Source: an uncultured Mollicutes bacterium
GTDB lineage: Bacteria > Bacillota_I > Bacilli_A > RFN20 > CAG-826
Assembly: GCA_900540395.1 (NCBI GenBank)
Contig: UQFQ01000004.1
Span: 23,765-87,764 of the forward strand
Direction of reading: 5' to 3'
Length of the DNA stretch: 64,000 nucleotides
Shown here: positions 9,388 to 42,169 of the stretch, in pieces
Layout: every line of letters begins with the position of its first letter
Numbering within the stretch: position 1 is the first letter of the stretch
Position numbers and translations under genes: made by a program
Notes under the pieces: generated by a model
What the model was told of the DNA's origin: nothing
The model's input: only the letters and a program-made list of their open reading frames with translations
Databases searched by the model: none

Positions 9388-9405
9388 GCAAAACTCAATT
9401 ATTTT
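9388..9405 (+). repeat. Copy 1 of the dispersed intergenic motif GCAAAACTCAATTATTTT
   Basis: Exact 18-mer shared with 32581, 39168 and 42152 (reverse complement). Confidence 0.7.
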
Positions 9406-9424
9406 ACAAAATTTCAAAATTGTT

Positions 9425-9460
9425 AATTAAAAGAAAAAAGCGCGTTTATTTTGCGCCTTT
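9425..9460 (-). terminator. Rho-independent terminator after the RluA-family gene. It is bidirectional, with A/T runs on both sides.
   Basis: AAAAAAGCGCG-tttatttt-GCGCCTTTTTT GC-rich hairpin overlapping the stop codon. Confidence 0.5.
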
Positions 9461-10414
9461 TTTGTTTGATTTATTGAATAAACCTTCAAATTCATTAGGT
9501 ATTTTTGTTGATAGTTTATAAGTCTTTCCACTAATTGGATTTTTAATAATTAGTTCATAAGCGTGTAAACAAAGTCTGCCTATTGGGTTTTCTGGTTCGC
9601 CATATTTGTCATCGCCTAAAACGTAATGCCCTAAACTTCCAAGTGTTACTCTGATTTGATTTTTTCTACCGGTAAAAATAGAAACGTCTAAAAGTGAGCA
9701 TTTCTCATTTTCTTTTAAAACTTTGTAATCAGTAATACATCTTTGAGCTTTTTTATCTTTAGAGGAAACAACATACATTAAATTTAAGGCGTTCATTCTT
9801 AAATAATTAACGATATGTTTTTCTTTTTCGTCCATTACTCCTTCGACAACGGCATAATAACCTCTTTTTGAAACAAGATCATTCCAACTGTTTTGAAACT
9901 CCTCTTTTAACTTTTCGTTTTTAGCAAAAATTAATACACCACTTGTTTCTTTATCTAGTCTATGAACAACATAAATTCGATTATGCTTGTCTTTTGCCTG
10001 AACATAATCCATAACCATTCTATAGGCGGTTGAGGATTTTTCTTTATCACTTGCAACGCTTAATAAGCCAAAAGGTTTGTTTATTGCAATAATATCGCTA
10101 TCTTCATAAATTATCGGTAAATCTTTTCTTGGTTTTTTACGAATAGGTTTTTTAGAAATAATCAAAGAGTCGCCTTTTGTTAATCTAAAATTAAATTGAC
10201 TAACTGGCGCTCCATCGATTGAAATCAAATGATGTGATAAAAGTCCCTTTGCGTTATTTCTTGAAAAATGAAGTTCTTCAATAAGGTATGTTAAAAGTTC
10301 AGAATCTTTTTTAACAATAAATTCTTTTATATCAAGTTCTTTTTTTGATTGATATTCTTCTAAGCTTTTTCCTTTTAATCTATTTTTTAAATTTTCTTTA
10401 TAATTCTTATTCAT
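9446..10414 (-). CDS. rluD: RluA-family 23S rRNA pseudouridine synthase (RluD-like, N-terminal S4 domain)
   Basis: S4-like N-terminus and catalytic motif [15 protein letters not shown]. Confidence 0.85.
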
Positions 10415-12032
10415 CTTCTAATTTAATTTGGTTAGCTGCTTTAATAAATCCTAAAAATAATGGGTGTGGTTTGAGTGGTCTAGATAAAAACTCTGGGTGG
10501 AATTGACAAGCTACAAAATATGGATGATTTTTTAACTCAACAATTTCACAAAGATTAGTTTGTGGATTAACTCCACTAAATGTTAAGTTTCCATCAGAGA
10601 ATAATTCTTTATATTTGTTATTAAATTCATATCTATGTCTATGACGTTCTCTGATCAAATCTTGACCGTATAAATCATATGTTTTTGTACCTTTAACCAA
10701 AGCACAATCGTACTCACCAAGCCTCATAGTGCCGCCCATCTTAATTCCTTTATATTGGTCAGGTAAATAATCAATGATATTATTCTTGCAATTTTCATCA
10801 AATTCAGTGGAATTAGCATCTTCAAGTTTTAAAACATCACGAGCATACTCAATCAAAGCAAGTTGCATTCCTAAACAAAGACCTAAATAAGGCAAGTTGT
10901 TTTCTCTAGCATACTTAATGGCTTTCATTTTTCCTTCTACGCCTCTTTTTCCAAATCCACCAGGAACAATAATGCCTTGAACATCACCTAGCACTTCACC
11001 AACATTTTCATCAGTTAAGTTATCGCTATTAACCCACTTAATTTCTACCGATTTATCAATTGCATAACCAGCATACTTTAACGATTCAACAACAGAAATA
11101 TAAGCGTCATGTAAGGAAACATATTTTCCAACAAGGGCAATTTTTACGCTCTTTTTAAGTCTTCTAATTTTTTCTATAAGTTTGACCCAGTCGCTCATAT
11201 CGGCTGAAGGCAAACAATCTAAATTCATATGTTTTACGATTAAATCATCTAAGTGTTGCTTTTGTAAATTTAAAGCAACTTCGTAAATGATTGGGACATC
11301 TTTAACACTAATTACAGCTTCATCACTTAAATTGCAAAATAAAGCTACTTTTCTTTTTGATTCGACGTCAATATTAACTTCGCATCTTAATAAAAGGGCA
11401 TCTGGTTGAATTCCTAAACCCGTTAGTTCTTTAACACTATGTTGTGTTGGTTTTGTTTTTATTTCTCCAGTGGTTTTTAGATATGGAACAAGAGTGTTGT
11501 GGACGAAGAAAGTATTTTCATATCCTAATTCTCTTCTAAGCTGACGAATGGCCTCTAAAAATGGGAGAGATTCAATATCACCAACGGTTCCACCAATTTC
11601 AACAATACAAACATCGGTGTCGCCTTTTGCATTAAAAGCTTCAAATAATCTTGCTTTTATTTCATTAGTAATATGAGGAATGATTTGAATAGTTGCCCCT
11701 AAAAAGACTCCTCTTCTTTCTTTTTCTAATACTGCACTATAAACTTTACCACTAGTTACACTACTTTCTTTTGTTAAGGAAGTATTGATAATACGTTCAT
11801 AATGTCCTAAATCAAGGTCTGTTTCAGCACCATCTTTAGTAACAAAAACTTCGCCATGTTGATATGGAGACATAGTACCTGGGTCAATATTTAAATATGG
11901 ATCCAATTTCATGGAAAAAACATTAAGGCCTCTTCTTTTGAGTAATCTTCCTATACAGGCTGCACTAATTCCTTTGCCTAAACTTGAAACAACACCACCT
12001 GTAACAAATATAAATTTCATCTTTTTTTCCAT
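10407..12032 (-). CDS. pyrG: CTP synthase
   Basis: [16 protein letters not shown]-terminus and glutamine amidotransferase GLCLGMQ..HPEF motifs. Confidence 0.95.
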
Positions 12033-12083
12033 ATTTAAAACCCTCGTAATTAAGAAATATTAAAAATATATAAATGGGTAGCC

Positions 12084-12118
12084 CTTAATATTGTAAAAGA
12101 AAGGTCGGCCTATATCAA
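12084..12118 (-). promoter_or_regulatory. Sigma-A-type pyrG promoter (TTGATA-17-TACAAT) with predicted TSS at GGGC and a 52-nt leader
   Basis: Read on the minus strand. The GGGC initially transcribed sequence is the hallmark of CTP-sensing reiterative transcription at pyrG in Bacillus. Confidence 0.4.
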
Positions 12119-12203
12119 ACGATATCTTGTTAATTTTGTTCTTTAATTTGCGTCTTTAATTTCTTAAAAAATTAGTGAGTTAGAAACCATTAAGAATCAA
12201 AGA

Positions 12204-12263
12204 AAAAAAGCCTGTATAAATCTTGTATTTTACTAAAAGATGTAAGTTTTGCAGGCTTTTTTA
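12204..12263 (-). terminator. Long imperfect hairpin with flanking A and T runs downstream of glcK (bidirectional terminator candidate)
   Basis: AAAAAAA-GCCTG...CAGGC-TTTTTT. Confidence 0.4.
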
Positions 12264-12286
12264 AAAAATTATTATATTTTTTCTAT

Positions 12287-13252
12287 TTAATTTAAATTGT
12301 CCATTGCTAAACAAGCACATCCAATAATGCCTGCATCGTTTTTTAAACTAGCAATTTTAATTTCAACTTTTGGTGTATGACGATACCCGTAATGGTACTT
12401 TTCACAATAAGCTTTTACTTTATCTAAAAGATAGTCACCTTGATTAGAAATTCCACCGCCAATAAGAATAATTTGTGGTCTAAATATATTACAGAAATTT
12501 AAAATACCTTCACTTAAATATTTAACATAGGTATCGATGACTTTTATTGCTGCTTCATCACCTTTTTTAGAACATTCAAAGCTTGTTAATCCGGTTACTG
12601 ATTCAATATCGTGATCACAATAATCCCACATAATAGAATTTGGATTCTTTTTCATTTCTTCTTTTGTAAGTTTAAGAAGAGCACTTGCACTAGCATAAGC
12701 TTCAAAACAACCCCTTCTACCACATGCACATTCGTGTCCGTCGACAACAATTACTGTATGGCCAAGTTCAGCTCCTTTTCCATCAACACCTTCAAAAAGT
12801 TTATCATCGATAACAACTCCGCCACCAATTCCGGTACCTAAAGTGAGTAAAACAACATCAGTATAACCTTTAGCAGCACCAAATCTTTCTTCACCAAGTG
12901 CAGCAACGTTTGCATCATTTGATAAGAAAATAGGTAAATTTAAATCTTTCAAATAATCTTTTAATGGAACATCTTCAACATAAAGATTACAAGCATAATC
13001 AATTGTTCCAAGTTTATTATTAACAACGCCAGGAATACCAAATCCGATTGCAAGAGGTTTCATATTATTATCTTTTGCGTAATCAACCATCTCTACCATT
13101 AAAGCCTTAATATCTTTTAATAAAGCTTCTTTGCCACCATTAACACTGTTGGTCTTTATTGAACCTTTGTGCAAAATTTTGCCTTGTTCATTTACCAAAC
13201 CAGCTTTAATAGACATTCCTCCAACGTCGACACCAATATAAACATTTTCCAT
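12287..13252 (-). CDS. glcK: ROK-family glucokinase
   Basis: ROK signature and Zn-binding motif HECACGRRGCFEAY. N-terminal ATP-binding YIGVDVGG motif. Confidence 0.85.
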   Translation of the reverse strand: MENVYIGVDVGGMSIKAGLVNEQGKILHKGSIKTNSVNGGKEALLKDIKALMVEMVDYAKDNNMKPLAIGFGIPGVVNNKLGTIDYACNLYVEDVPLKDYLKDLNLPIFLSNDANVAALGEERFGAAKGYTDVVLLTLGTGIGGGVVIDDKLFEGVDGKGAELGHTVIVVDGHECACGRRGCFEAYASASALLKLTKEEMKKNPNSIMWDYCDHDIESVTGLTSFECSKKGDEAAIKVIDTYVKYLSEGILNFCNIFRPQIILIGGGISNQGDYLLDKVKAYCEKYHYGYRHTPKVEIKIASLKNDAGIIGCACLAMDNLN

Positions 13253-13261
13253 AAATAAAAA

Positions 13262-13292
13262 TCTCCTAAAAATATTTTACATTCTTAGGAGA
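13262..13292 (-). promoter_or_regulatory. Anti-Shine-Dalgarno hairpin in the glcK 5' leader
   Basis: Perfect 8-bp inverted repeat TCTCCTAA/TTAGGAGA with a 15-nt loop. One arm is the glcK RBS AGGAGA, 9 nt before the ATG. Confidence 0.35.
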
Positions 13293-13503
13293 TGTTTTTC
13301 TATTGCTTCAAATAACAAATCAGTATATAAGCCCAATAATCATTTAAGTAAAATCTCGCTTGAGAAGTTAAAGATTTAAAATTGAAACTAAACGTTATAA
13401 AGAATTGCTTAATTTAATTTAGCAAAATCTTAACTTTAGCGATAAGTAAAAGAACTATTTTGCTTAAAATAATTTATTTTTGCGACTTTTTTGAATAAAT
13501 TCC

Positions 13504-13861
13504 TGGTGGAGATGCGGAGAGTCGAACTCCGGTCCACATATCCCCCTACAAAGACCACTACAGTTTATTTGAGGTTATAAATTTCATGGTTTATCAATCT
13601 CAACGAACTTTACACCACTAGATTATATTTTTTCATTCTTGTCCCATAATCATCGAACAAGACCTAACTCCCTAAATTGAGAAGCGTTAATTAACCAGGA
13701 GTAAATTAATTAAGCCCCACGCAAACTCTATATAGAGTTACTGACTAAGCAGCAAAAGCGTAATTGAAATTTCTGTTGCCAGATAATTTTAAGTTTGTGA
13801 TTACGTCACAACTCGACTGCAATCTATGCCAAAGGATACATGTCGAAACCAGTACATCCCC
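13504..13861 (-). ncRNA. ssrA: tmRNA (SsrA)
   Basis: The 5' end GGGGATGTACTGGTTTCGACATG and the tRNA-like 3' end GGAGTTCGACTCTCCGCATCTCCACCA are both present (minus strand). An internal tag reading frame ends ...GNRNFNYAFAA followed by TAG. Confidence 0.85.
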
Positions 13862-13871
13862 AGGTGAAATA

Positions 13872-13900
13872 ATAATAATTAGTAATACTTCCTTTGTCAA
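13872..13900 (-). promoter_or_regulatory. ssrA promoter TTGACA-17-TATTAT
   Basis: Consensus -35 with 17-bp spacing, ending a few nt upstream of the mature tmRNA 5' end. Confidence 0.5.
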
Positions 13901-13981
13901 TTTTTAAACTAATAAATTCATTTGTTTATAAACTATTTATAGTTTATACTAATACATGCATTCGATTTAGAGGATAGTTAA

Positions 13982-15109
13982 ATGGCAAAAGACAAAGTAA
14001 AAATTATTAAAAACAAAAAGAAATTCAACTTTGCATCAGTTTGGAAATTTGTAAAAACTTTATTTAAAAACGACGCTGTTGTAGAAGTTGCAACCACAAC
14101 CAAATGGTATTGGTCACTTATAGTATTTGTATTTGCGCTTGTTATCTCAGTCTTACCTTCAACAGTAAGTCAAGCAACCGCACAAGGCAGAAATTTTGTA
14201 TCAGGAAGCAATACAAGTTATTCTGATCCTTATATTAATGGTCTTTATGATTATTATAATAGTGATGTAGAAAACGCAAACATTGTATTTGATACAGCAA
14301 CAAACAAACTTTCTTCAACTACAAATAGTAGTGATTATTATGATACAGCTGACTATGCATTAAGTGATGGAACAAGAGCACCTAAACCACTTTATTCATA
14401 CTCTAGACAAGTTGAAAATAGTGGTCTTACTACAACTACTAATTATTTAGATATTTATGTCTATTACACTGGTAGTAATGGCACTTTAGACTTAAACCTT
14501 TTGTTATCAAACATTCAAGCAACCAATACAAACTTTGCTGATGGTTATACAACAAATACTGATGTTAAATATACTCGTCAAACTCCATTTATTCTTTTTA
14601 CAGATGATGGATTCTATGCAGTAAATTACTCTTCACAAGGTTCAACATCAATCTCTGGAAATTTTGCTCACATGTTAGAAGCTTTCAATTTTACAGGGTC
14701 CACTTATACATTTAAAGATGTATTAGGCTATCAAATCGTTGACAATTTAAGCGTTTCTGATATGCAAACTGCAATCTTTAGCAATTTCTTAACATGGTGT
14801 GATTACACTTATTTAGATGCACGTTTCACTTCAACTTGGGTTACTTTTGGTATCTATTGTGGTGTTAATGGTTCAATCATGTTATTAATGGGCTTAATCA
14901 TTTGGCTTATGTGCAGAGGTAAAAACAATCCAAATAACAAACTCAAAATTTGGGAAACTTACTCAATGGGCTTCTGGGCTTCATTGTCCCCTGCAATTCT
15001 CTCATTATTTGGTTTCTTAATGCCAAGCCTTGGAATGATGTTATTCATTATGCTATATGCATTTAGAATTATGTTCCTTTCAATGAAACAATTAAGACCA
15101 ATGTATTAA
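13982..15109 (+). CDS. Hypothetical membrane-anchored surface protein. It has a basic cytoplasmic N-terminus, one TM helix, a ~240-aa Thr/Ser/Asn/Tyr-rich ectodomain and a C-terminal bundle of 3-4 TM helices.
   Basis: Composition and hydropathy read from the translation. No recognisable catalytic motif. Adjacent to ssrA. Confidence 0.55.
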   Translation: MAKDKVKIIKNKKKFNFASVWKFVKTLFKNDAVVEVATTTKWYWSLIVFVFALVISVLPSTVSQATAQGRNFVSGSNTSYSDPYINGLYDYYNSDVENANIVFDTATNKLSSTTNSSDYYDTADYALSDGTRAPKPLYSYSRQVENSGLTTTTNYLDIYVYYTGSNGTLDLNLLLSNIQATNTNFADGYTTNTDVKYTRQTPFILFTDDGFYAVNYSSQGSTSISGNFAHMLEAFNFTGSTYTFKDVLGYQIVDNLSVSDMQTAIFSNFLTWCDYTYLDARFTSTWVTFGIYCGVNGSIMLLMGLIIWLMCRGKNNPNNKLKIWETYSMGFWASLSPAILSLFGFLMPSLGMMLFIMLYAFRIMFLSMKQLRPMY

Positions 15110-15125
15110 TAAGATAAAACACAAT

Positions 15126-15157
15126 TTAAAATGGGCTGATAAGCAGCCCATTTTTTA
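15126..15157. terminator. Bidirectional intrinsic terminator between convergent genes
   Basis: AAAATGGGCTG-ataag-CAGCCCATTTTTT. Confidence 0.7.
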
Positions 15158-15496
15158 ATCTTTCCAATCGCTATCAGGATTACCTTTATTATCAAAGTAA
15201 AGGTTAATTTCTCCTAGCACATCTCCAATTTCCCTGTAATAATAATCATCTTTATAAACGACAGGATTTTCAAAATCAGCCGTAAAAATCATTTTTTTAT
15301 TTCTTTTAGCAATTTCGATTATTTTATTAATAATTTCATCATAATGATCTACAAAATGATCTCTAACATATTGAAGTTGAGTGTAAAAATTTGGTTCAAC
15401 AAAAAATCTTGAACCGTCTTCTAACTCATAAAGATTAATGTCTTTGTAATTTTCGTCTACTACTTTTTTAAATTTATCAAATTCATGCATTTCCAT
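15155..15496 (-). CDS. Hypothetical small acidic cytoplasmic protein (113 aa)
   Basis: ORF with an AGGAGA RBS and no recognisable motif. Last gene of the minus-strand rlmH operon. Confidence 0.45.
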   Translation of the reverse strand: MEMHEFDKFKKVVDENYKDINLYELEDGSRFFVEPNFYTQLQYVRDHFVDHYDEIINKIIEIAKRNKKMIFTADFENPVVYKDDYYYREIGDVLGEINLYFDNKGNPDSDWKD

Positions 15497-15508
15497 AAGA
15501 ATCTCCTT

Positions 15509-15979
15509 TTAATGATGATAATCTTCGTGATTTATAATTTTAAAAGCGCGATATATTTGCTCTAAAATAATCATTCGACACATTTGATGTGTAAAAGTCA
15601 TTTTAGAAATAGATAATTTAATATTCGCTCTTTGTCTTACTTCTTCGCTTAAACCGAGTGTCCCGCCAATAACAAACGAAATTGGCGAAACACCTTTAGA
15701 AATTAAAGTATCGATTTGAGTTGCAAGTTCTTCGCTTGAATAAAAACTTCCTTTTAAATCTAGTAAAACAACAAAATCGTCTTTAGCTAATCGTTTTAAT
15801 AATCGTTCACCTTCTTCTTTTTTAATCGCATCTTCAGATTTATTTTGAATTTTTGACTCTTCGACTTCAATTATTTCAACTTTAGCAAAACGACTAAGTC
15901 TTTTTAAATATTCAGCTATGCCATCTTTTAAAAATTTTTCTTTAATCGTTCCGACGGCCACTAATTTTATTTTAATCAT
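15509..15979 (-). CDS. rlmH: 23S rRNA (pseudouridine1915-N3)-methyltransferase RlmH (SPOUT)
   Basis: YbeA/YydA-type sequence and size. Confidence 0.85.
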   Translation of the reverse strand: MIKIKLVAVGTIKEKFLKDGIAEYLKRLSRFAKVEIIEVEESKIQNKSEDAIKKEEGERLLKRLAKDDFVVLLDLKGSFYSSEELATQIDTLISKGVSPISFVIGGTLGLSEEVRQRANIKLSISKMTFTHQMCRMIILEQIYRAFKIINHEDYHH

Positions 15980-16716
15980 AATTCAACGACCTCGTGCTGA
16001 GAGGCACATTTAATTTCAATATGATCTAAGTTAACCTTTCGAAGAGTCAAAACATTATGATAAGTATCTAATGCTTTTTCTGGTGTATTACATTCTTCAC
16101 TTAAATGAGCTAATACAATTTTTTTAGTATTTTCTCCAATTAAATTAGACATATAAAACGCACTATCTTCATTAGATAAATGCCCTTTATAAGAAAGTAT
16201 CCTGCTTTTTAAAATTGCTGGTCGGTTACTATTTAATAACATTTCTACATCATGATTAGACTCAACAATATAGTAGGTCTTGTTTTTAATTAAATTAAAT
16301 GTTCTTTTGCTGATTTGTCCAGTATCAGTTAAATAAACTAGCTCTTCACTATCACTCTTAAGCAAAAAGCCACAAGTTGGATTAGAATCATGAGAAGCTT
16401 TAATTGGCATAATTAAAAAACTACCTAATTGGTATTCTTTATAACAACTTAATTCGTGATTTTTTAATAAAGGAACAATGTTTTTTAGTGCATATCTTTT
16501 TTCAATTGGTGTGCATTCATAAGATTTAATGTGGTCACTATGAGCATGAGTAAATAAAAAATAATCAAGATTTGCAATGTTTTTACCAATAGAAGATAGT
16601 TTTTCTTCAATCTCTTTTTTACTAATTCCAAAATCAATTAATATAGATGTATCATTATTAAAAATTAGTGTAGCGTTGCCTTTTGAGCCGCTAGCTAAAA
16701 CATAAGCATTAATCAT
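15976..16716 (-). CDS. MBL-fold metallo-hydrolase (YycJ/WalJ-like)
   Basis: HAHSDH motif. Position between dnaB and rlmH as in Bacillus, but without walRK. The start is taken at MINAY to remove the overlap with dnaB. Confidence 0.75.
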   Translation of the reverse strand: MINAYVLASGSKGNATLIFNNDTSILIDFGISKKEIEEKLSSIGKNIANLDYFLFTHAHSDHIKSYECTPIEKRYALKNIVPLLKNHELSCYKEYQLGSFLIMPIKASHDSNPTCGFLLKSDSEELVYLTDTGQISKRTFNLIKNKTYYIVESNHDVEMLLNSNRPAILKSRILSYKGHLSNEDSAFYMSNLIGENTKKIVLAHLSEECNTPEKALDTYHNVLTLRKVNLDHIEIKCASQHEVVEL

Positions 16717-18202: not shown

Positions 18203-18208
18203 AATAAA

Positions 18209-18661
18209 CTACTTTGTTTCTTCTACTAAATGAACACGAATAGTGCCTATTACATCTTTATATAACTCAATTTTTAAATTAGTATAACCAAAAGCATTCA
18301 TTGGATATTTATCAATAAATTTACGTTTATCAATAATGATACCGTATTTATCTTTTAATTCTTTTTCTACTTCTTTTGTTGAAACGCTGCCAGCTGGAGT
18401 GTGATCAGCATGAGCTTTTAATTTAAATTCAACTACAATTGTTTCAAGTTTTTCTTTTGCTCTTAAGGCTTCTTCTTTCAAAGCTTCTTGTCTTTTTTCT
18501 TCTTCGGCTTGCTCTTTTTTAAGTTCAGCAAGACTTTCTTCAGTTTTTCTAACAACTAACTTTCTAGGAATTAAAAAGTTTTTAGCATAACCATCAGAAA
18601 CAGTTTTGCTTTCACCTTTCTTTCCTAATTCTTTTACATCTTTAAGTAAGATAACTTCCAT
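18209..18661 (-). CDS. rplI: 50S ribosomal protein L9
   Basis: MEVILLKDVKELGKKGE N-terminus. Confidence 0.9.
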   Translation of the reverse strand: MEVILLKDVKELGKKGESKTVSDGYAKNFLIPRKLVVRKTEESLAELKKEQAEEEKRQEALKEEALRAKEKLETIVVEFKLKAHADHTPAGSVSTKEVEKELKDKYGIIIDKRKFIDKYPMNAFGYTNLKIELYKDVIGTIRVHLVEETK

Positions 18662-18666
18662 TTTAA

Positions 18667-22008: not shown

Positions 22009-22017
22009 AATTTTTTA

Positions 22018-26983: not shown

Positions 26984-28213
26984 TCAACATAGAAGTTGTT
27001 TACATTTAAATCTAATTAACCCGTTCTTTTTAATTTTTTGCTGATATCTAGGCACAAAAATTAATATACCATTTTTATCATAAATTCCGGGCCAAACATC
27101 TCTTAAATAAGCAGGCATTTTCCAAGAGATAAATTCTCTATTAACTTTGAGAGTAAATCCTTTGTGTTCATAGGTTTTACCTTCTTTAGCTGGTTTGATA
27201 GTTATTGGAAAAGCCTCCTTTAGCAATTTAAACTCTTTAGCTTTTTTGTTGATGTGAAATATTTCGTTTTTGGAATCTGGGTTATCAAATTCGTAAACAT
27301 ATGGTTTCCCTTTTTTAAGAATTTGAATGACACCATAATCTAAATATAAAAAATAATCGGAATTGATTTTTTCCTTATGATTTCCCGCTTTGTTTTTAAT
27401 TATCTCCATTAAGTTCTTACATCTTCCTTCGGAAATTGGAGTAAAAACATTTTTATATTTAAGCAAATAAATAAGTAATAGATGAAATTCTTTAATGTCA
27501 ATCGAATCAAATAATTTAGAATTTGTATTGATATATTTAGGAATACCTAAATCTTTAAATTTTGATAAAATATCTAAGTTTTGAAGGTTTTTTATTTTTT
27601 TCTCCATTAAAATGTTTATAATTTGACTGTCATCTAGTTGACTCAGCTCTTTGCGAATTTTATTTCTTTTAAACTTAGAATCAAAATTTGATGGATCAAT
27701 AGAATAAGGAACATTGTTTTCCTCACAATATTTTTCAAGCTCGCTTTTTTTAACTTTTAATAGCGGACGGACGATTTTAATATTACCTCTTTTAGATATT
27801 TTCTCTAATCCATAATGAAAGAAAACTCCTCCTCTTTCTTTCTGTAATAAGTAGGTTTCAACATCGTCGCCTTCATTATGAGCAACAAGAACGTTTTTAA
27901 TTTTTGTTTTTTCACAAACTTCCTCAAAGAAATTATAACGAACATCTCGAGCCCAAATTTCTTCATTAACATTTTCAGGCATATTTGTAGAAAGCACATG
28001 AAGGGTTATCGAATATTTATCGCAAAATTCTTTAATTCCTCTCTCATCATCATCAGCCTGTTCCAAAATATGGTAATTTACATGAGCAACTTCAAAACTA
28101 TATCCATTTTCTAATAGATAGTAAAATAAAGCCATTGAATCTGGCCCATAGCTACAAGCTAATAAATACTTATGTTTCTTAGATAGTTTCGTTACTTTCT
28201 TCAATAAGTTCAT
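26984..28213 (-). CDS. tilS: tRNA(Ile)-lysidine synthetase
   Basis: PP-loop ATPase N-terminus (variant SYGPDS) plus TilS C-terminal domain. Position upstream of ftsH. Confidence 0.75.
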   Translation of the reverse strand: MNLLKKVTKLSKKHKYLLACSYGPDSMALFYYLLENGYSFEVAHVNYHILEQADDDERGIKEFCDKYSITLHVLSTNMPENVNEEIWARDVRYNFFEEVCEKTKIKNVLVAHNEGDDVETYLLQKERGGVFFHYGLEKISKRGNIKIVRPLLKVKKSELEKYCEENNVPYSIDPSNFDSKFKRNKIRKELSQLDDSQIINILMEKKIKNLQNLDILSKFKDLGIPKYINTNSKLFDSIDIKEFHLLLIYLLKYKNVFTPISEGRCKNLMEIIKNKAGNHKEKINSDYFLYLDYGVIQILKKGKPYVYEFDNPDSKNEIFHINKKAKEFKLLKEAFPITIKPAKEGKTYEHKGFTLKVNREFISWKMPAYLRDVWPGIYDKNGILIFVPRYQQKIKKNGLIRFKCKQLLC

Positions 28214-32500: not shown

Positions 32501-32580
32501 GTTTACTCCTCCACCAATAAATACAATTATAAATTTATTTTGTTGGAAAGAAAATACAATTTTTATGAAATAATTTCCTT

Positions 32581-32597
32581 GCAAAACTCAACTATTT
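32581..32597 (+). repeat. Copy 2 of the dispersed motif GCAAAACTCAACTATTT
   Basis: See finding. Confidence 0.7.
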
Positions 32598-32627
32598 ATT
32601 AAATAAATTAAAAATTTATGTTTTTAA

Positions 32628-32656: not shown

Positions 32657-32679
32657 TCTTTAACTAGGAGAAGATTTAG

Positions 32680-33324: not shown

Positions 33325-33345
33325 GTTAAGAAGAAAGGAGTTTGT

Positions 33346-35163: not shown

Positions 35164-35165
35164 TT

Positions 35166-37271
35166 ATGCCAGGTCCAGGTAGAGCAAGAAGCATAGATAA
35201 ACCTCAAAACATGAAGCTTGTTTTTAAGCGCATGTTAAAAGATTTTAAGAAAGAGTATGTTGTATTAATTTTTGTAATCTTGTTTGCAATAGGCAGTGCC
35301 GTGTTAAATATTATCGCTCCTATCTTTCTTGGCGAGTTTTTAAACCATGCCTTACCTCAAGATATTGCAACTTCACCATTGTTCAACTTTGTTTTAGTAG
35401 ATGGGTCAACTGTTGTACAAATTAATTGGGGTTATTTTTTCTATAATTTCGGGGTTTTGCTTGGTTTTTATGTAGGAAGTGCATTACTTTCATGGCTTAG
35501 TGAATGGCTTTCAGTTGGAGTTGGAGCAAGATATGCCTATGAATTTAGAGATAAAATTCTTATTAAATTAGATAAACTTCCATTAAGTTATTTCGACCGT
35601 GTTCCATACGGAGATACACTCTCAGTTTGTACTAACGATGTTGATAATATATCAAGAAACTTACAATCAATTATCACTCAAACAACAAGCGGCGTTTCCT
35701 TATTCTTCGGCTCTTTAATCGCAATGTTTATTTACGACTATCGCTTAGCTTTTATCGCCTTAGCGGTTTTACCAATTACTCTTATTATTGTTTTGCTTAT
35801 TTCAAAACATTCACAAAAACAATTTGCATCTTATAGAAAAGAACTCGGAGATTTAAACGGAAAAGTAGAAGAAAATTATGCTGGCGTCTCTGTAATTAAG
35901 TTGTTTAATAAAGAAGATGATGTCGAGGCCGATTTTGATATTGTAAACAAAAGAATGGCGAAAGCTGATGGCTTATCACAGTTCTTATCAGGTTTTGTTT
36001 TCCCAACAACAATCTTTATTAACAACGTTGCTTATGTTGCCATCGCTGTTGTTGGAGGTATCATTGGACAAATAGGAACAATGATTTCTTTCTTTACACT
36101 TTTAAGTTTATTCACAAGACCTTTCCAACAAATTGGTCAAATTGCAAATATCATTCAATCTGTATTAGCTAGTGGAGAAAGAATCTACAATCTTCTTGAT
36201 GAAGTTGAAGAAATTCCAGATAAAGTCACTGCTGAAACCGAAGAAAACAAAATCCAAGGCGAATTTGATTTTGATCACGTATATTTCCAATATTCTATCG
36301 ACAAACCTCTTATCGAAGATTTCACACTTCATGTAAATAAAGGCGATATGGTTGCTATTGTTGGTCCAACAGGTGCAGGAAAAACAACGATGGTTAATCT
36401 TATTATGAGATTTTACGAAATAACCAATATAGCTAACATTGATGATTTAAAAACTAAATCCTTAAAATTCCGAAATTCAATTAACCAAATTTTAGGATAT
36501 GAGGAAGTCAAAGACATAGATATTAATTCTTCCTTAGATATTCGTGAAGCAACTCGTTTAGAAAGAGAAAAACTAGAAGACTTTTACCAATCAGCTATTA
36601 AAAACAATAAAAAGATTTTAGGTGATGATGATATCAAAAAACTAGATTATATTCATTCTTTAATACCTAATATCTTTAATAACGGTAATATTAAATTAGA
36701 TGGGAAAACCATATTCAACTATACAAGAAATTGCTTAAGAGGCTCAATAGGTATGGTTCTCCAAGATACTTGGTTATTTAAAGGTACAATTAAAGAAAAT
36801 CTTCTTTATGGCGATCCTAACGCAACCGATGAAGAGATTGAAAAAGCTTGTAAAGAAGCACACATTGATCATTTCATTCACACTTTACCAGGTGGTTACA
36901 ACTTTGTTTTAAACGAAGATGGTAGCAACGTTTCTCAAGGTCAAAGACAACTCCTCACAATCGCTAGAGCAATTATTTCTAAACCACGAATTATGATTTT
37001 AGATGAAGCAACTTCTTCTGTTGATACTCGAACCGAGCAACAAATTCAAGACGCTTTAAATAAAATTATAGAAAATAGAACTTCCTTTGTTATTGCTCAT
37101 AGACTTTCAACAATTAAAAACGCCAAACTTATTATTGTTATGAAAAAAGGCCATATTGTTGAAACCGGTACCCACTATGAACTCCTCAAAAAAGGCGGTT
37201 TCTATGCTGAGCTTTATAACTCACAATTCGCTGGAAATAATCCAATGTCAAAAGAAGTTGAAGAAAGCTAA
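35166..37271 (+). CDS. ABC exporter subunit (permease-NBD), partner of the preceding gene. It carries a ~85-aa insertion in the NBD between Walker A and the Q-loop.
   Basis: Walker A GPTGAGKTT, signature VSQGQRQLL, Walker B IMILDEATS. Confidence 0.85.
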   Translation: MPGPGRARSIDKPQNMKLVFKRMLKDFKKEYVVLIFVILFAIGSAVLNIIAPIFLGEFLNHALPQDIATSPLFNFVLVDGSTVVQINWGYFFYNFGVLLGFYVGSALLSWLSEWLSVGVGARYAYEFRDKILIKLDKLPLSYFDRVPYGDTLSVCTNDVDNISRNLQSIITQTTSGVSLFFGSLIAMFIYDYRLAFIALAVLPITLIIVLLISKHSQKQFASYRKELGDLNGKVEENYAGVSVIKLFNKEDDVEADFDIVNKRMAKADGLSQFLSGFVFPTTIFINNVAYVAIAVVGGIIGQIGTMISFFTLLSLFTRPFQQIGQIANIIQSVLASGERIYNLLDEVEEIPDKVTAETEENKIQGEFDFDHVYFQYSIDKPLIEDFTLHVNKGDMVAIVGPTGAGKTTMVNLIMRFYEITNIANIDDLKTKSLKFRNSINQILGYEEVKDIDINSSLDIREATRLEREKLEDFYQSAIKNNKKILGDDDIKKLDYIHSLIPNIFNNGNIKLDGKTIFNYTRNCLRGSIGMVLQDTWLFKGTIKENLLYGDPNATDEEIEKACKEAHIDHFIHTLPGGYNFVLNEDGSNVSQGQRQLLTIARAIISKPRIMILDEATSSVDTRTEQQIQDALNKIIENRTSFVIAHRLSTIKNAKLIIVMKKGHIVETGTHYELLKKGGFYAELYNSQFAGNNPMSKEVEES

Positions 37272-37331
37272 ACTAGAATTTTTTAGAATTAAAAGCATAG
37301 GTAAAATCCCACCGCTTTTTTTAATTTCCTT

Positions 37332-37349
37332 GCAAATCTTAAGTATTTT
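37332..37349 (+). repeat. Degenerate copy (15/18) of the dispersed motif GCAAATCTTAAGTATTTT
   Basis: See finding. Confidence 0.4.
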
Positions 37350-38911
37350 TATTTTTTCTTTGCGTTTTTAACATCTATATCGGTAAGTTCTTTATAGATG
37401 TTATGAAGATTTGGATAAACCTTTATATAGACTTTTTCGTATAATTCTTTGTATTCTTTTACATCCTTCTTATTAGGAGTAAAAACTTTAACATAACGAA
37501 TCATATTTTTCTTAATTTCGTCGAGTGAATTATATCTTTTCAAAGCTAAAAACTGAGCACATGCACAACCCAAGGAAGAATTTTCACAAGTTTCGCTTTT
37601 GTAAACAGGAAGGTTAAATAAATCTGCGGTGATTTGACAAATAGCATCACTTCTAGATCCACCACCAGCAATAGTTAAATATTTAATTTTTTTATGACTT
37701 CTTTTTTCAATGCTTTCTAAGCCTTCTTTTAAAGCAAAGCCGATACCTTCAATAATTGCCCTATAAAAATGATATTTTGTATGAACATCGAAAAAACCAA
37801 TTACAGCACCCTTTGCTAAAGGCCTGCTTAAGCCAGGTCCCCAATATGGTTGCAAAATCAATCCATCGCTTCCAGGCGGAATGTCCATTAACTTTTCATT
37901 CAAAACTTCTTCAGGAGCCACTTTTTCAATTTGTGCTTCGATTGATTCATTTTGACCAAATTGTTGTACAAACCAAGTCAACATCCAATAGCCTCTATAA
38001 ATTTGTACTTCGCCGCTGTACCATCCTGGAAAAGAAGCAATATAAGATGGTAAGAATCTTTCTGGTTCAAAATAATTTTTACTAATAACAGCTATTGAAG
38101 AACTAGTCCCATAACTAATATGTGCACTATCTGAATCAACTTGTCCGCTTCCTAAAGCTTCACACGATTTATCGTTACCTGTTGTTATATATTTAAGTCC
38201 TTCAGGAAACCCTGTTTCTAATGAGCATTTATTTGTAATTGTACCAATTACTTCACCTACCGGAGCAATCTCTGGCATTAGCTTTGGATCGATATTATAT
38301 AATTCACCTTTTAATGCGCCTTTTTTATACCACTTCCCTTTTTTAAAATTCAAAGGGTAGTGACCAATCATGTTTGATGCACAATCAGTTAAAACTCCAA
38401 GCATTCTATAATTTAAATAAGCGTTTAATGGTACATAGTGTTTAATCTTTTTCCGGTTTTCTGGTTCGTTTTCTTGCAGCCAAATAGCCGGTGTTCTTTT
38501 ACGGTTCAAATTAACTGTCTTTGTCATATTAACAAACCAAAATGCAATATTTTGCCACCAAGGAAGTTTCTTTTTTAAATCAGCTTGCCTTTGATCTAAC
38601 CAGATTATTGAAGGTCTAACGATATTTAGTTTTTCATCCAAATAAACAGCTGTATCTCTAAAACAAGTAGAAGAAATACTAACTACGTTTTTTAATAGTT
38701 CCGGATTTTTTTCTGTTAATCTTTTAGCAGCACGACACATATGGTCGTAATAGTAGTTAGGATCTTGTTCACAATATCCAGGTTTTGGAGAAAAATATGG
38801 CGATTTATATCTTTCTTGCTCAAAGGCTAAAAATTTTCCTTTATCATCAATTATTGAAACTCTAACACTTTGTGTTCCATAATCAATCGCTATTACATAA
38901 TTATTTTCCAT
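37349..38911 (-). CDS. FGGY-family carbohydrate kinase
   Basis: N-terminal AIDYGTQSVR actin-fold ATPase motif and C-terminal GGGSRS motif. Confidence 0.75.
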   Translation of the reverse strand: MENNYVIAIDYGTQSVRVSIIDDKGKFLAFEQERYKSPYFSPKPGYCEQDPNYYYDHMCRAAKRLTEKNPELLKNVVSISSTCFRDTAVYLDEKLNIVRPSIIWLDQRQADLKKKLPWWQNIAFWFVNMTKTVNLNRKRTPAIWLQENEPENRKKIKHYVPLNAYLNYRMLGVLTDCASNMIGHYPLNFKKGKWYKKGALKGELYNIDPKLMPEIAPVGEVIGTITNKCSLETGFPEGLKYITTGNDKSCEALGSGQVDSDSAHISYGTSSSIAVISKNYFEPERFLPSYIASFPGWYSGEVQIYRGYWMLTWFVQQFGQNESIEAQIEKVAPEEVLNEKLMDIPPGSDGLILQPYWGPGLSRPLAKGAVIGFFDVHTKYHFYRAIIEGIGFALKEGLESIEKRSHKKIKYLTIAGGGSRSDAICQITADLFNLPVYKSETCENSSLGCACAQFLALKRYNSLDEIKKNMIRYVKVFTPNKKDVKEYKELYEKVYIKVYPNLHNIYKELTDIDVKNAKKK

Positions 38912-39167
38912 ACGTATAATTATAAGTTAAAACACCAAGTATATAAATTAAATATTTACATTCAAAAAGCAGTTTTTCGGAGGGCTTAATTTATTCAAAT
39001 ATCTTTTTTTGGAATATAATATTTTTCATATTTGTCTCTCAAAAAAATAAGTTTCCAGTTATTTTTAAAGTTTACTTAAAATTACAAGACAGTATTACTC
39101 AAATTTTATTGAGCCTAATAGTTAGAAATTTACTTTATAAAAAAGTATTAAAATTCACTAAAATGCT

Positions 39168-39185
39168 GCAAAACTCAACTATTTT
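39168..39185 (+). repeat. Copy 3 of the dispersed motif GCAAAACTCAACTATTTT
   Basis: See finding. Confidence 0.7.
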
Positions 39186-39301
39186 TTGTTTTTTATTATT
39201 ACAATGCGTTTTTAATTAGTATTTCTTTCGTTGCTTAACTGATTTTTTTAAAACTTTAGTTTTAACTTTTTAATTATCTACATTTAACCTTGCTTAAATT
39301 A

Positions 39302-39333
39302 TGTTATAATCTAGTCAGTTGTTAAAACAACTG
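39302..39333 (+). promoter_or_regulatory. ppdK promoter with an extended -10 (TGtTATAAT) followed by the 18-bp perfect palindrome CAGTTGTTAAAACAACTG (operator candidate)
   Basis: Seen in the sequence. RBS GGAGG at 39343. Confidence 0.5.
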
Positions 39334-39356
39334 CCAAAATTTGGAGGTTTATTTAA

Positions 39357-42044
39357 ATGGCTAAAAAGTATGTTTACCTCTTTAAAGAAGCACACGGCTT
39401 AGGCAAAGAGCTTCTCGGAGGAAAAGGTGCAGGCTTAGCAGAGATGACCTATATCGGCGTCCCTATTCCACAAGGTTTCACAATTACAACAGAAGCATGC
39501 ACACTTTATTATGAGAGTGGTAAAGTTTTACCAGAAAGTTTAATCAAAGAAATCGATAAAGGCATTCACGCTGTCGAAAAAGAATCTGGAAAATCATTCG
39601 GTGGAATTGATCCAACCAAGACACCACTTTTAGTTTCAGTTAGATCTGGCGCAAGAGTTTCTATGCCAGGTATGATGGATACCATTTTAAATTTAGGTTT
39701 AAATGATACATCTGTTGAAACACTCGCAAAAGTTAGCAACAATGAAAGATTTGCTTACGATTCATATCGTAGATTCATCCTTATGTTCACCAACATTGCA
39801 AAAGGTTGGCCAAGAACTGATATGGATAGAATGCTTGACAAAATCAAAGAAGACAACGGCTATAAACTTGATACCGAAGTTACAACCGAACAATTAAAAG
39901 AATTAGTTAAAGCATATAAAGCATATTATAAAGAAAAATTCGGTGAAGAGTTCCCATCAGACCCATATGTTCAATTACATGCTGCAGTTGAAGCAGTTTT
40001 CAGATCATGGGATAACCCAAGAGCTAACGTCTATAGACAAATGAACTCAATTCCATATGAATGGGGTACTGCTGTTAACGTTCAATCAATGGTTTTCGGT
40101 AACTTAAACGCTAACTCTGGTACTGGTGTTGCTTTCTCCAGAGACCCATCAAGCGGTGAAAAGAAAGTTTATGCTGAATACTTACCACAAGCTCAAGGTG
40201 AAGACGTCGTTGCTGGTATTAGAACTCCTTACCACATCGATTACTTAAAAGAGCAAATGCCAGATGTCTACAATCAATTTGAAAAGACAATCAAAGCAAT
40301 GGAAGCTCACTATAAAGATATGCAAGATATGGAATACACCGTTGAAGACGGCAAACTCTATTTCTTACAAACAAGAAACGGTAAGAGAACCGCTGCTGCT
40401 TCATTAAAGATTGCTCTTGATTTATTAGACGAAGGCGTCATTACAGAAGATGAAGCTGTTGTTAGAGTTGAACCAAAATTACTTGATTCATTACTCCACC
40501 CAACATTCGATCCAGCAGCTTTAAAAACTGCTACCCCAATCGCTAAAGGTAACCCAGCATCTCCAGGTGCAGGCGTTGGTCACTTAAGCTTTGATGCAGA
40601 AGATGCAAAAGCAAGAAGAGCAAATGGCGAAAGAGTAATTCTTGTTAGAGCTGAAACATCACCAGAAGATATTGAAGGTATGGTTTCCGCTGAAGCTATT
40701 TTAACTATGAGAGGTGGTATGACTTCTCACGCAGCAGTTGTTGCTCGTGGTATGGGTAAATGCTGTGTCACAGGTTGCTCTGCAGCTATTGTTGATGAAG
40801 AAAACAAAACATTAACTATCAACGGTAAAGTTTTCCACGAAAACGACACAATTTCTGTTGATGGTTCAACAGGTTCAGTCTACGAAGGTGCTATGGCTCT
40901 TATTCCAGCTGATACAAAAGCAGGAAACTTCGGCAGAATTATGAAACTTGCTGATAAGTATAGAAGACTTTCAATCAGAACTAATGCTGATACTCCAAAA
41001 GACGCAAAACAAGCTGCTGAATTTGGTGCTGAAGGTATTGGTCTTTGTAGAACAGAACATATGTTCTTCTCCGGCGACAGAATCTTCCACATGAGAAGAA
41101 TGATTCTCGCTGATACAGTTGAAGAAAGAGAACAAGCTTTAAGCGAACTTCTCCCATATCAAAGAGAAGACTTCTACGGATTATTCATGTCAATGAAGGA
41201 TCTTGAACATATCAACGTTAACGTTAGATTACTCGATCCACCTCTACATGAATTCTTACCAACAGAAGAAGATAAGATTAAAGAATTAGCTGATTCTTTA
41301 AATAAATCAGTTGAACAAATCAAAGCAAGAATTGAATATCTCCATGAATTCAACCCAATGATGGGACACAGAGGATGTAGATTAGACGTCACTTACCCAG
41401 AAATCGGAAGAATGCAAGCAAGAGCTATTGTTGAAGCTGCTATCAAAGCAAGCAAAGATACTGGTAAAGAAATCGAACCAGAAATCATGATTCCTTTAAC
41501 TCTTGATATTAAAGAATTCAAGTTCGTTAAGAAGATCATTGTTGAAGAAGTTGAAAAAGTTTTAAAAGAAAACAACATTTCAATGAAATATCACGTTGGT
41601 ACAATGATTGAAATCCCAAGAGCTGCTTTACTCTCTGGTGAAATCGCTTCTGAAGCTGAATTCTATTCATTCGGTACTAACGACTTAACACAAATGACCT
41701 TTGGTTTCTCAAGAGACGATGCTTCTAAGTTCTTAGGCGCATACTATGAAAACAAGATTCTTGAAGAAGATCCATTCCAACACGTTGATCAAAAAGGTGT
41801 CGGTAAATTAATTAAGATGGCAGTTGCTGATGGAAAAGCTACAAGACCAGATTTACTTTGTGGTGTTTGTGGTGAACACGGCGGCGATCCAGAATCAATT
41901 CACTTCTTCAATAAAGTTGGATTAGATTATGTTTCTTGCTCACCATTCAGAGTCCCAATTGCTAGACTTGCTGCAGCTCAAGCTGAAATCTTATTAAAGA
42001 GAGAAGAAGCAAAAGCCAAAAAAGGAAGCAAAAAATCTAAATAA
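39357..42044 (+). CDS. ppdK: Pyruvate, phosphate dikinase
   Basis: Full three-domain architecture with phospho-His GGMTSHAAVVARG and PEP-utilising C-terminal domain. Confidence 0.95.
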   Translation: MAKKYVYLFKEAHGLGKELLGGKGAGLAEMTYIGVPIPQGFTITTEACTLYYESGKVLPESLIKEIDKGIHAVEKESGKSFGGIDPTKTPLLVSVRSGARVSMPGMMDTILNLGLNDTSVETLAKVSNNERFAYDSYRRFILMFTNIAKGWPRTDMDRMLDKIKEDNGYKLDTEVTTEQLKELVKAYKAYYKEKFGEEFPSDPYVQLHAAVEAVFRSWDNPRANVYRQMNSIPYEWGTAVNVQSMVFGNLNANSGTGVAFSRDPSSGEKKVYAEYLPQAQGEDVVAGIRTPYHIDYLKEQMPDVYNQFEKTIKAMEAHYKDMQDMEYTVEDGKLYFLQTRNGKRTAAASLKIALDLLDEGVITEDEAVVRVEPKLLDSLLHPTFDPAALKTATPIAKGNPASPGAGVGHLSFDAEDAKARRANGERVILVRAETSPEDIEGMVSAEAILTMRGGMTSHAAVVARGMGKCCVTGCSAAIVDEENKTLTINGKVFHENDTISVDGSTGSVYEGAMALIPADTKAGNFGRIMKLADKYRRLSIRTNADTPKDAKQAAEFGAEGIGLCRTEHMFFSGDRIFHMRRMILADTVEEREQALSELLPYQREDFYGLFMSMKDLEHINVNVRLLDPPLHEFLPTEEDKIKELADSLNKSVEQIKARIEYLHEFNPMMGHRGCRLDVTYPEIGRMQARAIVEAAIKASKDTGKEIEPEIMIPLTLDIKEFKFVKKIIVEEVEKVLKENNISMKYHVGTMIEIPRAALLSGEIASEAEFYSFGTNDLTQMTFGFSRDDASKFLGAYYENKILEEDPFQHVDQKGVGKLIKMAVADGKATRPDLLCGVCGEHGGDPESIHFFNKVGLDYVSCSPFRVPIARLAAAQAEILLKREEAKAKKGSKKSK

Positions 42045-42062
42045 TTTAAAAGCCATTTAATT

Positions 42063-42091
42063 AAAAAGAGGAGCGAAAGTTCCTCTTTTTA
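42063..42091 (+). terminator. Intrinsic terminator after ppdK
   Basis: AGAGGA-gcgaaagt-TCCTCTTTTT. Confidence 0.7.
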
Positions 42092-42151
42092 AATGCTCAA
42101 AATTAAGCAAAATAGATATTATATATGAATTATTTTTTCTTAAATTTATTA

Positions 42152-42169
42152 AAAATAATTGAGTTTTGC
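42152..42169 (-). repeat. Copy 4 (reverse orientation) of the dispersed motif GCAAAACTCAATTATTTT
   Basis: See finding. Confidence 0.7.

Follow-up and report, generated by a model that had tools for sequence, protein, structure and literature searches.

Few hard-wired, sequence-specific signals of chromosomes have been described (parS, matS, the Noc-binding site [NBS], the FtsK-orienting polar sequences [KOPS], Chi, the DNA uptake sequences USS and DUS, and the repetitive extragenic palindromic [REP] elements), and each of them opened a mechanism of chromosome handling. The described system with which we compare our element most closely is the strong site of DNA gyrase. In Escherichia coli, the gyrase motif spans 130 bp, with a 36-bp center and flanks reaching from -63 to -17 and from +20 to +66 (PMC6379681). 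These flanks show a 10.75-bp G/C periodicity, symmetric about the cleavage site, that has been explained by the wrapping of DNA on the GyrA C-terminal domains; an excess of cleavage sites was observed downstream of transcribed operons, and the REP-containing bacterial interspersed mosaic elements BIME-2 behave as transcription-independent strong gyrase sites (PMC6379681). The gyrase of Streptococcus pneumoniae shows the same symmetric phasing (PMC12630141). Here we analyze 64,000 nucleotides of DNA from an uncultured Mollicutes bacterium (contig UQFQ01000004.1, positions 23,765 to 87,764), referred to throughout as the window, and the asymmetric 27-nucleotide (nt) motif AAAAACCYTGCAAAACTCAAYTATTTT that is dispersed through it. 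The motif is a real DNA signal, apparently undescribed before, and it forms the center of a longer element that we tentatively consider a strong gyrase site.

The window derives from the metagenome-assembled genome (MAG) of an uncultured gut member of the Bacilli ("Mollicutes"/Onthovivens-like). It is part of a 110-kb metagenome scaffold and covers the oriC region, with rpmH-rnpA on one side, dnaA-dnaN-recF-gyrB-gyrA on the other, and a GC-skew switch near 50 kb. A preliminary description of this DNA had reported an 18-mer, GCAAAACTCAAYTATTTT, in four exact copies. We found three exact copies, at 9388-9405 (+), 39168-39185 (+), and 42152-42169 (-); the fourth, at 32581-32598 (+), matches at 17 of 18 positions and differs at the last base. 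The copy at 37332-37349 (+) matches at 15 of 18 positions, as reported; at 61961, where a possible copy had been noted, there is an indel variant, aaaaaaaCTGCAAAAACCTATTTAaatt, whose membership is plausible but unproven. Two copies absent from the earlier list lie at 46219 (+), with one mismatch, and at 13466 (-), with two; in addition to the copy at 37332, matches with three mismatches occur in a few other places. With up to three mismatches allowed, the 18-mer has 10 matches in the window against 1.21 expected, a number reached in none of 100 shuffles, which upholds the claim that it recurs beyond chance.

This 18-mer is the core of the 27-nt motif. Alignment of 71 copies from the clade gave the consensus AAAAACCYTGCAAAACTCAAYTATTTT(t), in which base-specific conservation is confined to the motif; outside positions -9 to +18, information content is at background. 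At no more than 5 mismatches in 27, the window contains 11 sites where 0.03 are expected (maximum of 1 in 60 Markov-2 simulations), and beyond these there are one site with 6 mismatches and one indel variant. Chance origin is ruled out by the shuffles and the simulations. The density of the motif is ~1 per 6 kb in the window (11 per 64 kb), and secondary copies in other clade loci occur at ~1 per 13 kb. We also reconsidered a second sequence, GTTTTTAATT, which is indeed present ~22 nt downstream of the copies at 32581 and 39168, as had been pointed out. This 10-mer occurs 6 times in the window against 2.3 expected (5 of 100 shuffles reach 6) and is not conserved in the 71 clade copies. Its placement is therefore a coincidence, and it does not stand as a companion signal.

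The conserved bases end at the motif, and the DNA around it is patterned in a different way. When 67 to 73 nonredundant copies were averaged, with positions counted from the first base of the 27-mer, the A/T content (W) of the flanks was helically phased for ~50 bp on either side of the core. On the left, A/T content peaks at -42, -29, -17.5, and -7.5, and on the right at +33, +43.5, and +55; W reaches 0.99 at -17 and +32, and the troughs between peaks are at ~0.6. In the periodogram, both flanks have their maximum at a period of 11-11.5 bp (power of 0.044 and 0.038), whereas in 200 random-anchor controls the power averaged 0.007 and did not exceed 0.016; no phasing was found around the control anchors A5SS or A5S-N17-T4 in the same genomes. 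Phasing around 15 copies located within genes is as strong as around intergenic copies. Together, the A5, A4, and T5 tracts of the core and those of the flanks make ~10 A/T tracts in helical phase over ~110-120 bp, in a pattern that is approximately mirror symmetric about the middle of the core (mirror correlation of 0.62 at position 12.5 and 0.64 at position 18). Phased tracts of this kind are the hallmark of indirect readout, in which DNA is bent or wrapped along the surface of a protein. The whole is a ~120-bp double-stranded DNA element, and it is probably a site of some kind at which a protein wraps or bends the DNA.

The element has no preferred strand. Intergenic copies between co-oriented genes are forward in 22 cases and reversed in 23; the flanking genes are convergent for 12 others and divergent for 8. 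To the left of oriC in the window, the + strand has 6 copies and the - strand 5, with no preference relative to replication. Stop codons, on either strand, adjoin or overlap about 45% of the intergenic copies. Copies are found after the transfer-messenger RNA (tmRNA) gene, after gyrBA, and after an open reading frame (ORF) of 83 amino acids (aa), facing the terminator of the pyruvate phosphate dikinase (PPDK) gene, and between convergent genes. At one clade locus (such loci are denoted by L numbers; here L097), convergent trmD and ffh are separated by the 27-mer and nothing else, and it supplies the context of both stop codons.

According to the preliminary description, all copies were intergenic. 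This is true of the four that it listed and fails for the family as a whole, since the window copies at 16558, 27567, 43519, and 46210 are genic. Of the 12 window copies, 4 are genic, as are about a quarter of those in the clade; genic copies occur in tilS, mnmE, ksgA, a metallo-beta-lactamase (MBL)-fold gene, mnmG, ispD, and membrane-protein genes, in sense and antisense and in every frame left open by the motif sequence. Perfect copies are present inside mnmG and ispD, a copy with 1 mismatch inside tilS, and a copy with 17 of 18 core positions inside mnmE. The segment of mnmG that carries the perfect copy (L057) encodes a peptide of the same length, with no indel, as what we take to be the corresponding part of E. 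coli MnmG, and so the motif was presumably written in by substitutions rather than inserted. The presence of genic copies in both senses and all open frames argues against any transcriptional signal.

At the level of RNA, the motif is predicted to be unstructured. Folding of either strand, alone or in context, was no better than that of shuffles (z-scores of at least 0), and the minimum free energy of the consensus was 0 to -0.2 kcal/mol, without the stem-loop of extragenic palindromes (REP/BIME). The strictly extragenic placement of REP/BIME and their clusters of alternating orientation are likewise missing, copies being present in genes and inverted doublets being rare. One doublet that makes a long hairpin lies at L122 (9771/9801), with a decayed version in the window (12205/12235), and the left half, AAAAACCYTGCAAAA, sometimes serves on its own as a stem arm of ordinary terminators. 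At gathering score, Rfam 15 gave tmRNA and signal recognition particle (SRP) RNA alone in the window and no family at the motif; no complementarity of the motif to tmRNA or SRP RNA and no tRNA-related element were found. A structured or known RNA element is thus ruled out by the Rfam, folding, and complementarity results.

We next compared orthologous positions on syntenic 20-kb pieces fetched by means of ribosomal protein S18, L34, and S4-domain protein anchors, which represent many strains and three or four sister species at 79 to 84% nucleotide identity. In sister species, a copy is present at the position orthologous to each of the 8 window sites in the covered regions (12235, 13466, 16558, 27567, 42152, 43519, 46210, and 58973). 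The stable parts of these sites are the left half (AAAAAsCYTGCAAAA) and the terminal T-run. In three species, an identical 28-nt block, TGCAAAACTCAATTATTTTTTTAGTTTT, lies in a membrane-protein gene whose flanking coding sequence is ~50% identical. Orientation is not kept: the site next to the tmRNA gene, forward in the window, is flipped in L138/L146, a sister species, and in UMGS732 (L026), and two species differ in the orientation of the copy in the convergent trmD/ffh spacer. These flips indicate that what counts is the location of a site and not its polarity, as one would expect of an enzyme with two-fold symmetry.

Across a scan of 185,579 species-representative genomes, at least 119 DNA stretches matched. 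Among the matches listed, about half are single chance matches in unrelated taxa, and the other half come from at least ~25 species-level MAGs (Candidatus Onthovivens, uncultured Mollicutes, Bacilli, and Bacillales), so comparison with related genomes places the motif in several named genera and in unclassified lineages from chicken, pig, human, and ruminant guts. A single genome has up to at least 8 separate motif-bearing contigs among these matches, and sister lineages such as the genomes CASDWE01 and CASDYC01 (24-25% GC) are poor in the motif, with 0-2 copies. There is no significant tie to contig ends or assembly breaks, with 5 copies within 300 nt against 2.6 expected. In 2.9 million viral contigs (IMG/VR), the 21-mer that includes the clade prefix has 0 matches, and the bare 18-mer has 14, all without the clade prefix and on unrelated, mostly high-GC contigs. 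A phage origin of the motif is ruled out by these two results. Eight of the viral contigs (L125-L127, L130, L131, and L134-L136; GC of 0.53-0.58) have a common block, gggtcaagtgGCAAAACTCAAYTATTTTtagttgcgtaaaaacaacgc, which holds the bare 18-mer without the prefix and appears unrelated to the clade motif. In the searchable literature, the motif sequence was found, on either strand, only in unrelated eukaryotic papers, and papers naming Onthovivens do not mention it.

Of the proteins that might occupy the element, we chose DNA gyrase as the most likely because of the overall dimensions, the two-sidedness, the orientation independence, the placement, and the match of the inner peaks. This assignment, drawn from anatomy, is tentative. 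Measured about motif position 13, the inner A/T peaks lie at ±11.5, 20, and 30.5, compared with ±11.5, 19, and 29.5 in the E. coli consensus; the flank-only correlation with the E. coli template was best, at r = 0.41, when centered on motif position 12 (absolute distances of 16-45). From general DNA-wrapping geometry, a period above 10.5 bp would fit a right-handed wrap. We propose that the element would act on double-stranded DNA regardless of its orientation and of the surrounding genes. A protein complex would recognize the 27-bp core and bend or wrap ~45-55 bp of flanking DNA on each side, with the A/T positions of each 11-11.5-bp turn putting narrow minor grooves inward. If gyrase is that complex, the element may be a strong gyrase site hard-wired into the sequence, equivalent in function to REP/BIME-2 and to the strong gyrase site (SGS) of phage Mu. 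Most sites would then be found immediately downstream of transcription units, where positive supercoiling is expected to accumulate, and sites would be tolerated within genes because they would have no effect on transcription or translation.

Several observations weigh against gyrase. The enzyme is symmetric, its sequence preference is degenerate, and its sites have a degenerate symmetric pattern, in contrast to the strictly conserved, asymmetric 27-mer at the center of our element. A strict asymmetric core of 18 to 27 bp shared across genera, unlike the E. coli and pneumococcal gyrase sites, may point instead to a dedicated sequence-specific protein. By direct reading, the motif has neither a central GxxC nor a G at the would-be cut position. 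The center of symmetry is ambiguous, with positions 12.5 and 18 scoring alike; the correlation with the E. coli consensus drops to r ~0 once the outer flanks are included (absolute distances of 16-66), and the period of 11-11.5 bp differs from the 10.75 bp of the E. coli motif. At degenerate orthologous sites, the central pentamer varies freely, even from strain to strain, so some copies may be decaying. Finally, proximity to stop codons could simply mark where a 27-bp motif does least harm.

In the alternative that survives best, the element would be occupied by an architectural or nucleoid protein that is dedicated to this sequence and is not a topoisomerase. Such a protein would read the asymmetric core and bend the phased flanks; candidates include an IHF-like bender of the DNABII family, a nucleoid-occlusion factor, or a condensin-loading factor. 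We regard this as improbable but well worth considering. All of the DNA-level evidence (strand neutrality, genic copies, persistence, and phasing) applies to it equally, and the strict asymmetric core suits a specific reader better than gyrase. Among the readings offered earlier, the nucleoid-protein or architectural half of the suggestion of a regulator or nucleoid-protein site is the best supported, on the grounds of strand-neutral and genic copies and phased flanks. The origin region lacks parAB and noc, and another organizer may therefore be needed. The motif, which reads A5-CCYTGCAA-ACTCAAYTATTTT, also resembles what we take to be the layout of IHF sites, an A-tract, N8, and WATCAANNNNTTR; 7 of the 9 specified positions of the presumed IHF consensus match, with the A-tract spaced as in lambda H', and two differ. 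However, the IHF footprint covers ~35 bp with a one-sided A-tract, compared with ~50 bp of phasing on both sides here, and parS, NBS, matS, and the SlmA-binding site (SBS) are palindromic, whereas the motif is not. We know of no IHF in Bacillota, and no candidate protein has been identified; a regular-expression search of ~1 Mb of clade loci found no DNABII ORF, a sample too sparse to be informative.

A DNA uptake signal like USS or DUS, read by the transformation machinery and accumulating through biased uptake and recombination, is unlikely, even though many features match the earlier proposal of an uptake or recombination signal. The strands are used equally, genic copies occupy all permissive frames, without indels where lengths were compared, and intergenic copies are enriched directly past stop codons. 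Occasional inverted pairs or left-half pairs make terminator hairpins, the window has 3 perfect against 2 one-mismatch cores, the same sequence extends across genera, and its A/T tracts are helically phased. The absence of the prefix-bearing motif from the viral contigs would also fit, with the limit that phages of this clade are possibly unrepresented in IMG/VR, and a DprA-like ORF is present at one clade locus. On the other side, a density of ~1 per 6-13 kb is 5 to 10 times lower than the ~1 per kb of known USS and DUS, and the phasing is two-sided and symmetric, whereas USS tracts are one-sided. In unbiased strain and species loci, copies with 4 to 6 mismatches, at long-fixed positions, far outnumber near-consensus ones. 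As weak evidence, a regular-expression search of ~560 kb of sparsely sampled clade DNA found no com pilus or ComGA genes. To our knowledge, sequence-specific DNA uptake occurs in no member of the Bacillota, and it is quite doubtful that the motif is a self-recognition uptake tag in this cell-wall-reduced, genome-reduced lineage. If it were, it would be the first sequence-specific transformation signal outside the Proteobacteria of which we know, and the 27-bp core with phased flanks on both sides would imply a receptor other than ComP or the USS receptor.

We consider it very unlikely that the copies are relics or active members of a miniature mobile element, of the REP-doublet (REPIN) or miniature inverted-repeat transposable element (MITE) type, or solo transposon ends. 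The motif is a dispersed short repeat that lineages carry in different numbers, with an inverted doublet at L122 (9771/9801) and inverted copies bracketing PPDK. Against this, and against the miniature-repeat remnant suggested earlier, similarity stops at 27 nt, doublets are rare, and neither terminal inverted repeats nor a hairpin or extended similarity, as in MITEs or the ends of insertion sequences, were found; the motif is not part of any insertion sequence or terminal inverted repeat. Orthologous sites are kept in species of ~80% identity, and the same sequence recurs in at least ~25 species of several genera. The 177 flanking proteins include no recurrent gene or transposase, the largest cluster being one large paralogous family, and the flanks show position-specific phasing, which an insertion would not bring along.

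Still less credible is a signal in transcription or RNA, whether an alternative-sigma promoter, a hairpin-less or protein-dependent bidirectional terminator, or a 3' untranslated region element. The frequency of copies at stop codons, the trmD/ffh spacer made up entirely of the 27-mer, and the A5...T5 frame, like that of a bidirectional terminator minus its stem, would suit such a signal, and -10-like hexamers are mildly enriched 16 nt past YTGCAA (13 versus ~4.5 per offset). Yet these hexamers are independent of a co-oriented downstream gene (10/20 versus 17/31), promoter scans gave no consistent sigma-70 match (-35 and -10 spaced by 16-18 nt, towards a gene), orientation relative to genes is random, and perfect copies lie in genes in both senses. 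Features of an intrinsic terminator were not found; separate hairpin terminators coexist with the motif (near 9388, 37332, and 42152; the preliminary description had placed several copies next to terminators) and are not depleted near copies (15/42 versus 94/374). An operator of a global transcription factor with a regulon can be set aside as most improbable: sites number tens per genome, some lie in divergent promoter regions (32572 and 39159), and the reverse strand, GTTTT-N5-GTTTT, resembles what we take to be the tandem half-sites of response regulators, but the regulator half of the earlier suggestion is not supported, because neighboring genes are not recurrent, sites lie past stop codons and in genes in either orientation with no fixed distance to a start codon or relation to a promoter, and exact conservation over 18 nt is far above that usual for operators.

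The individual copies in the window are listed in Table 1.

Table 1. Copies of the 27-nt motif in the window, with their surroundings and their counterparts in related strains and species
Feature	Position	Strand	Agreement with motif	Surroundings	Related strains and species
Motif copy	9379..9405	+	Core exact; 3/27 mismatches, all in A-rich prefix	Intergenic; past hairpin behind rluD-like gene, ~250 nt upstream of DUF1538 gene	Identical in strain L122
Degenerate copy	12235..12261	-	5/27 mismatches	Makes up loop and 5' arm of hairpin AAAAAAGCCTG...CAGGCTTTTTT, the ROK-gene terminator	Near-consensus copy (2/27 mismatches) in some strains
Degenerate copy	13466..13492	-	5/27 mismatches	11 nt downstream of tmRNA 3' end	
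Copy in MBL-fold (Lactamase_B) gene	16558..16584	-	4/27 mismatches	Sense strand; encodes KNIANLDYF	Orthologous copies in all strains and sister species
Copy in tilS	27567..27593	-	5/27 mismatches	Sense strand; encodes KNLQNLDIL	1-mismatch copy at same codon position in tilS of another genus-level MAG (L020)
Copy	32572..32598	+	Core 17/18	Between divergent pth and tetR-like genes	No variation in 8 strains
Degenerate copy	37323..37349	+	6/27 mismatches; core 15/18	Spacer of convergent ABC-transporter and FGGY-kinase genes; 1-nt overlap with FGGY stop codon	Polymorphic among strains
Copy	39159..39185	+	Core exact; 3/27 mismatches	Between divergent FGGY-kinase and PPDK genes	
Best window copy	42152..42178	-	Core exact; 2/27 mismatches	2 nt past stop codon of 83-aa ORF, between this ORF and PPDK terminator	Occupied in sister species (L155, L157, L160) at 4-5/27 mismatches; left half alone kept in L152 and L159 (>6/27 overall); central 5 nt differ among lineages
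Copy in ksgA/rsmA	43519..43545	+	5/27 mismatches	Antisense	Position conserved in sister species
Copy in mnmE	46210..46236	+	Core 17/18	Antisense; gene reads KIVEVCKEN	Nearly invariant across lineages of 79-100% identity
Copy	58973..58999	+	5/27 mismatches	16 nt past gyrA stop; includes ATG of next glycosyltransferase-like gene	3/27 version in a sister species
Possible indel variant, AAAAAAACTGCAAAAACCTATTTAAA	61953..61978	+	Membership uncertain	Spacer after deaminase (tadA-like) gene	

The surroundings of several copies have features of their own. The PPDK gene (39357-42044) has a G+C content of 0.385, compared with 0.30 for the window, and the inverted copies on its two sides, at 39159 (+) and 42152 (-), have 38-nt arms that are 84% complementary. 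The pyrG-ROK spacer (~12040-12290) is hypervariable, with 81% identity and indels between strains otherwise 97-98% identical, and it holds the one motif site that makes an inverted doublet or hairpin in some strains. At the counterpart of ~37270-37350, one strain (L166:1-1130) has a group II intron with an RVT_1 and GIIM ORF and the 5' end GTGTGACAGG. This intron sits after the T-run of the ABC-transporter terminator hairpin, which, by comparison with L163, is the 5' edge of the copy equivalent to 37323; L166 ends before the motif side of the insertion, and the edge is placed from L163. We take this position to reflect the terminator-targeting habit of class C introns rather than a tie to the motif. 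The gyrB and gyrA genes adjoin the copy at 58973. GyrB (54207-56324) and GyrA (56344-58956) have acidic, probably disordered N-terminal extensions of ~55 aa (MKMEEEKKEQEKVVETSEETESEK...) and ~30 aa (MENEEKKAEITENTNDSEEELREEN...), respectively, ahead of the first Pfam domain, and no extra DNA-binding domain was found in either protein.

Elsewhere in the window, the origin-proximal string at 45472-50245 lacks mnmG, rsmG, noc, parA, and parB; jag-mnmE is followed by tatD, rnmV, ksgA, and ispE, and mnmG is located elsewhere in a related genome (L057). A YidC-like membrane insertase ORF (47449-49335) encodes 628 aa with PF02096 as its sole match, roughly double the ~260-300 aa usual for YidC of Bacillota. 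A single ORF of ~1,050 aa at 3839-7021 combines a major facilitator superfamily (MFS) transporter domain with glycoside hydrolase family 2 domains, and a 12-mer, GAAGAGCTTGAA / TTCAAGCTCTTC, occurs in 4 places against 0.02 expected under a first-order model. In the genus Onthovivens, CGG is predicted to be reassigned from arginine to tryptophan (PMC13092985). Our ORFs were translated with standard table 11, and CGG codons are mistranslated if the organism of the window shares that reassignment.

The element is clade-wide in uncultured, genome-reduced gut bacteria, survives in essential genes, and has a clear DNA-wrapping signature. If it is a strong gyrase site, the management of supercoils can be encoded by a precise motif outside the enterobacteria, and the element would offer a defined substrate for gyrase targeting and for fluoroquinolone cleavage hot spots. 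If it instead belongs to a new DNA-binding protein or an uptake system, it would offer a way to study the biology of this uncultured clade. Either way, the motif provides a simple marker of the clade, of use in binning and in separating host from phage DNA.

Compared with known systems, the motif appears to belong with the dispersed chromosomal signals that proteins recognize. Like the strong gyrase sites (the E. coli 130-bp motif, REP/BIME-2, and the Mu SGS), the element measures ~120-130 bp, with a center and two flanks of ~45-50 bp in which A/T and G/C alternate in phase; like them, it occurs in either orientation at ~1 per 5-15 kb, is tolerated in genes, and may favor the DNA past the 3' ends of transcription units. 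Unlike REP, its core is not palindromic. The sites of IHF (lambda H' and the repetitive IHF-binding palindromic [RIP]/BIME-1 elements) are, as we take them to be, asymmetric and ~30 bp long, with an A-tract one turn 5' of TCAA-N4-TT, and are often located in extragenic repeats at gene ends, all of which is like the motif; the phased flanks, however, reach far past the IHF footprint. With parS, the Noc NBS, the SlmA SBS, and the MatP matS, the motif shares a near-exact short double-stranded sequence common to several genera, found in and between genes in tens of copies per genome, but those sites are palindromes bound by dimers and confined to chromosome domains, whereas the motif is asymmetric, present on many contigs, and has flanks that are probably wrapped. 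The USS of Pasteurellaceae and the DUS of Neisseriaceae resemble it in their use of both strands, their genic and intergenic copies, enrichment near terminators, presence in related genera, hairpin-making inverted pairs, frequent perfect copies, and A/T tracts in phase with the core; they differ in a core of 9-12 bp rather than 27 bp, and the motif differs from them in its Bacillota host and in degenerate copies long kept at fixed positions. The motif is thus set apart from REP and parS-type sites by not being palindromic, and from USS and DUS by its density, its host, and its two-sided phasing.

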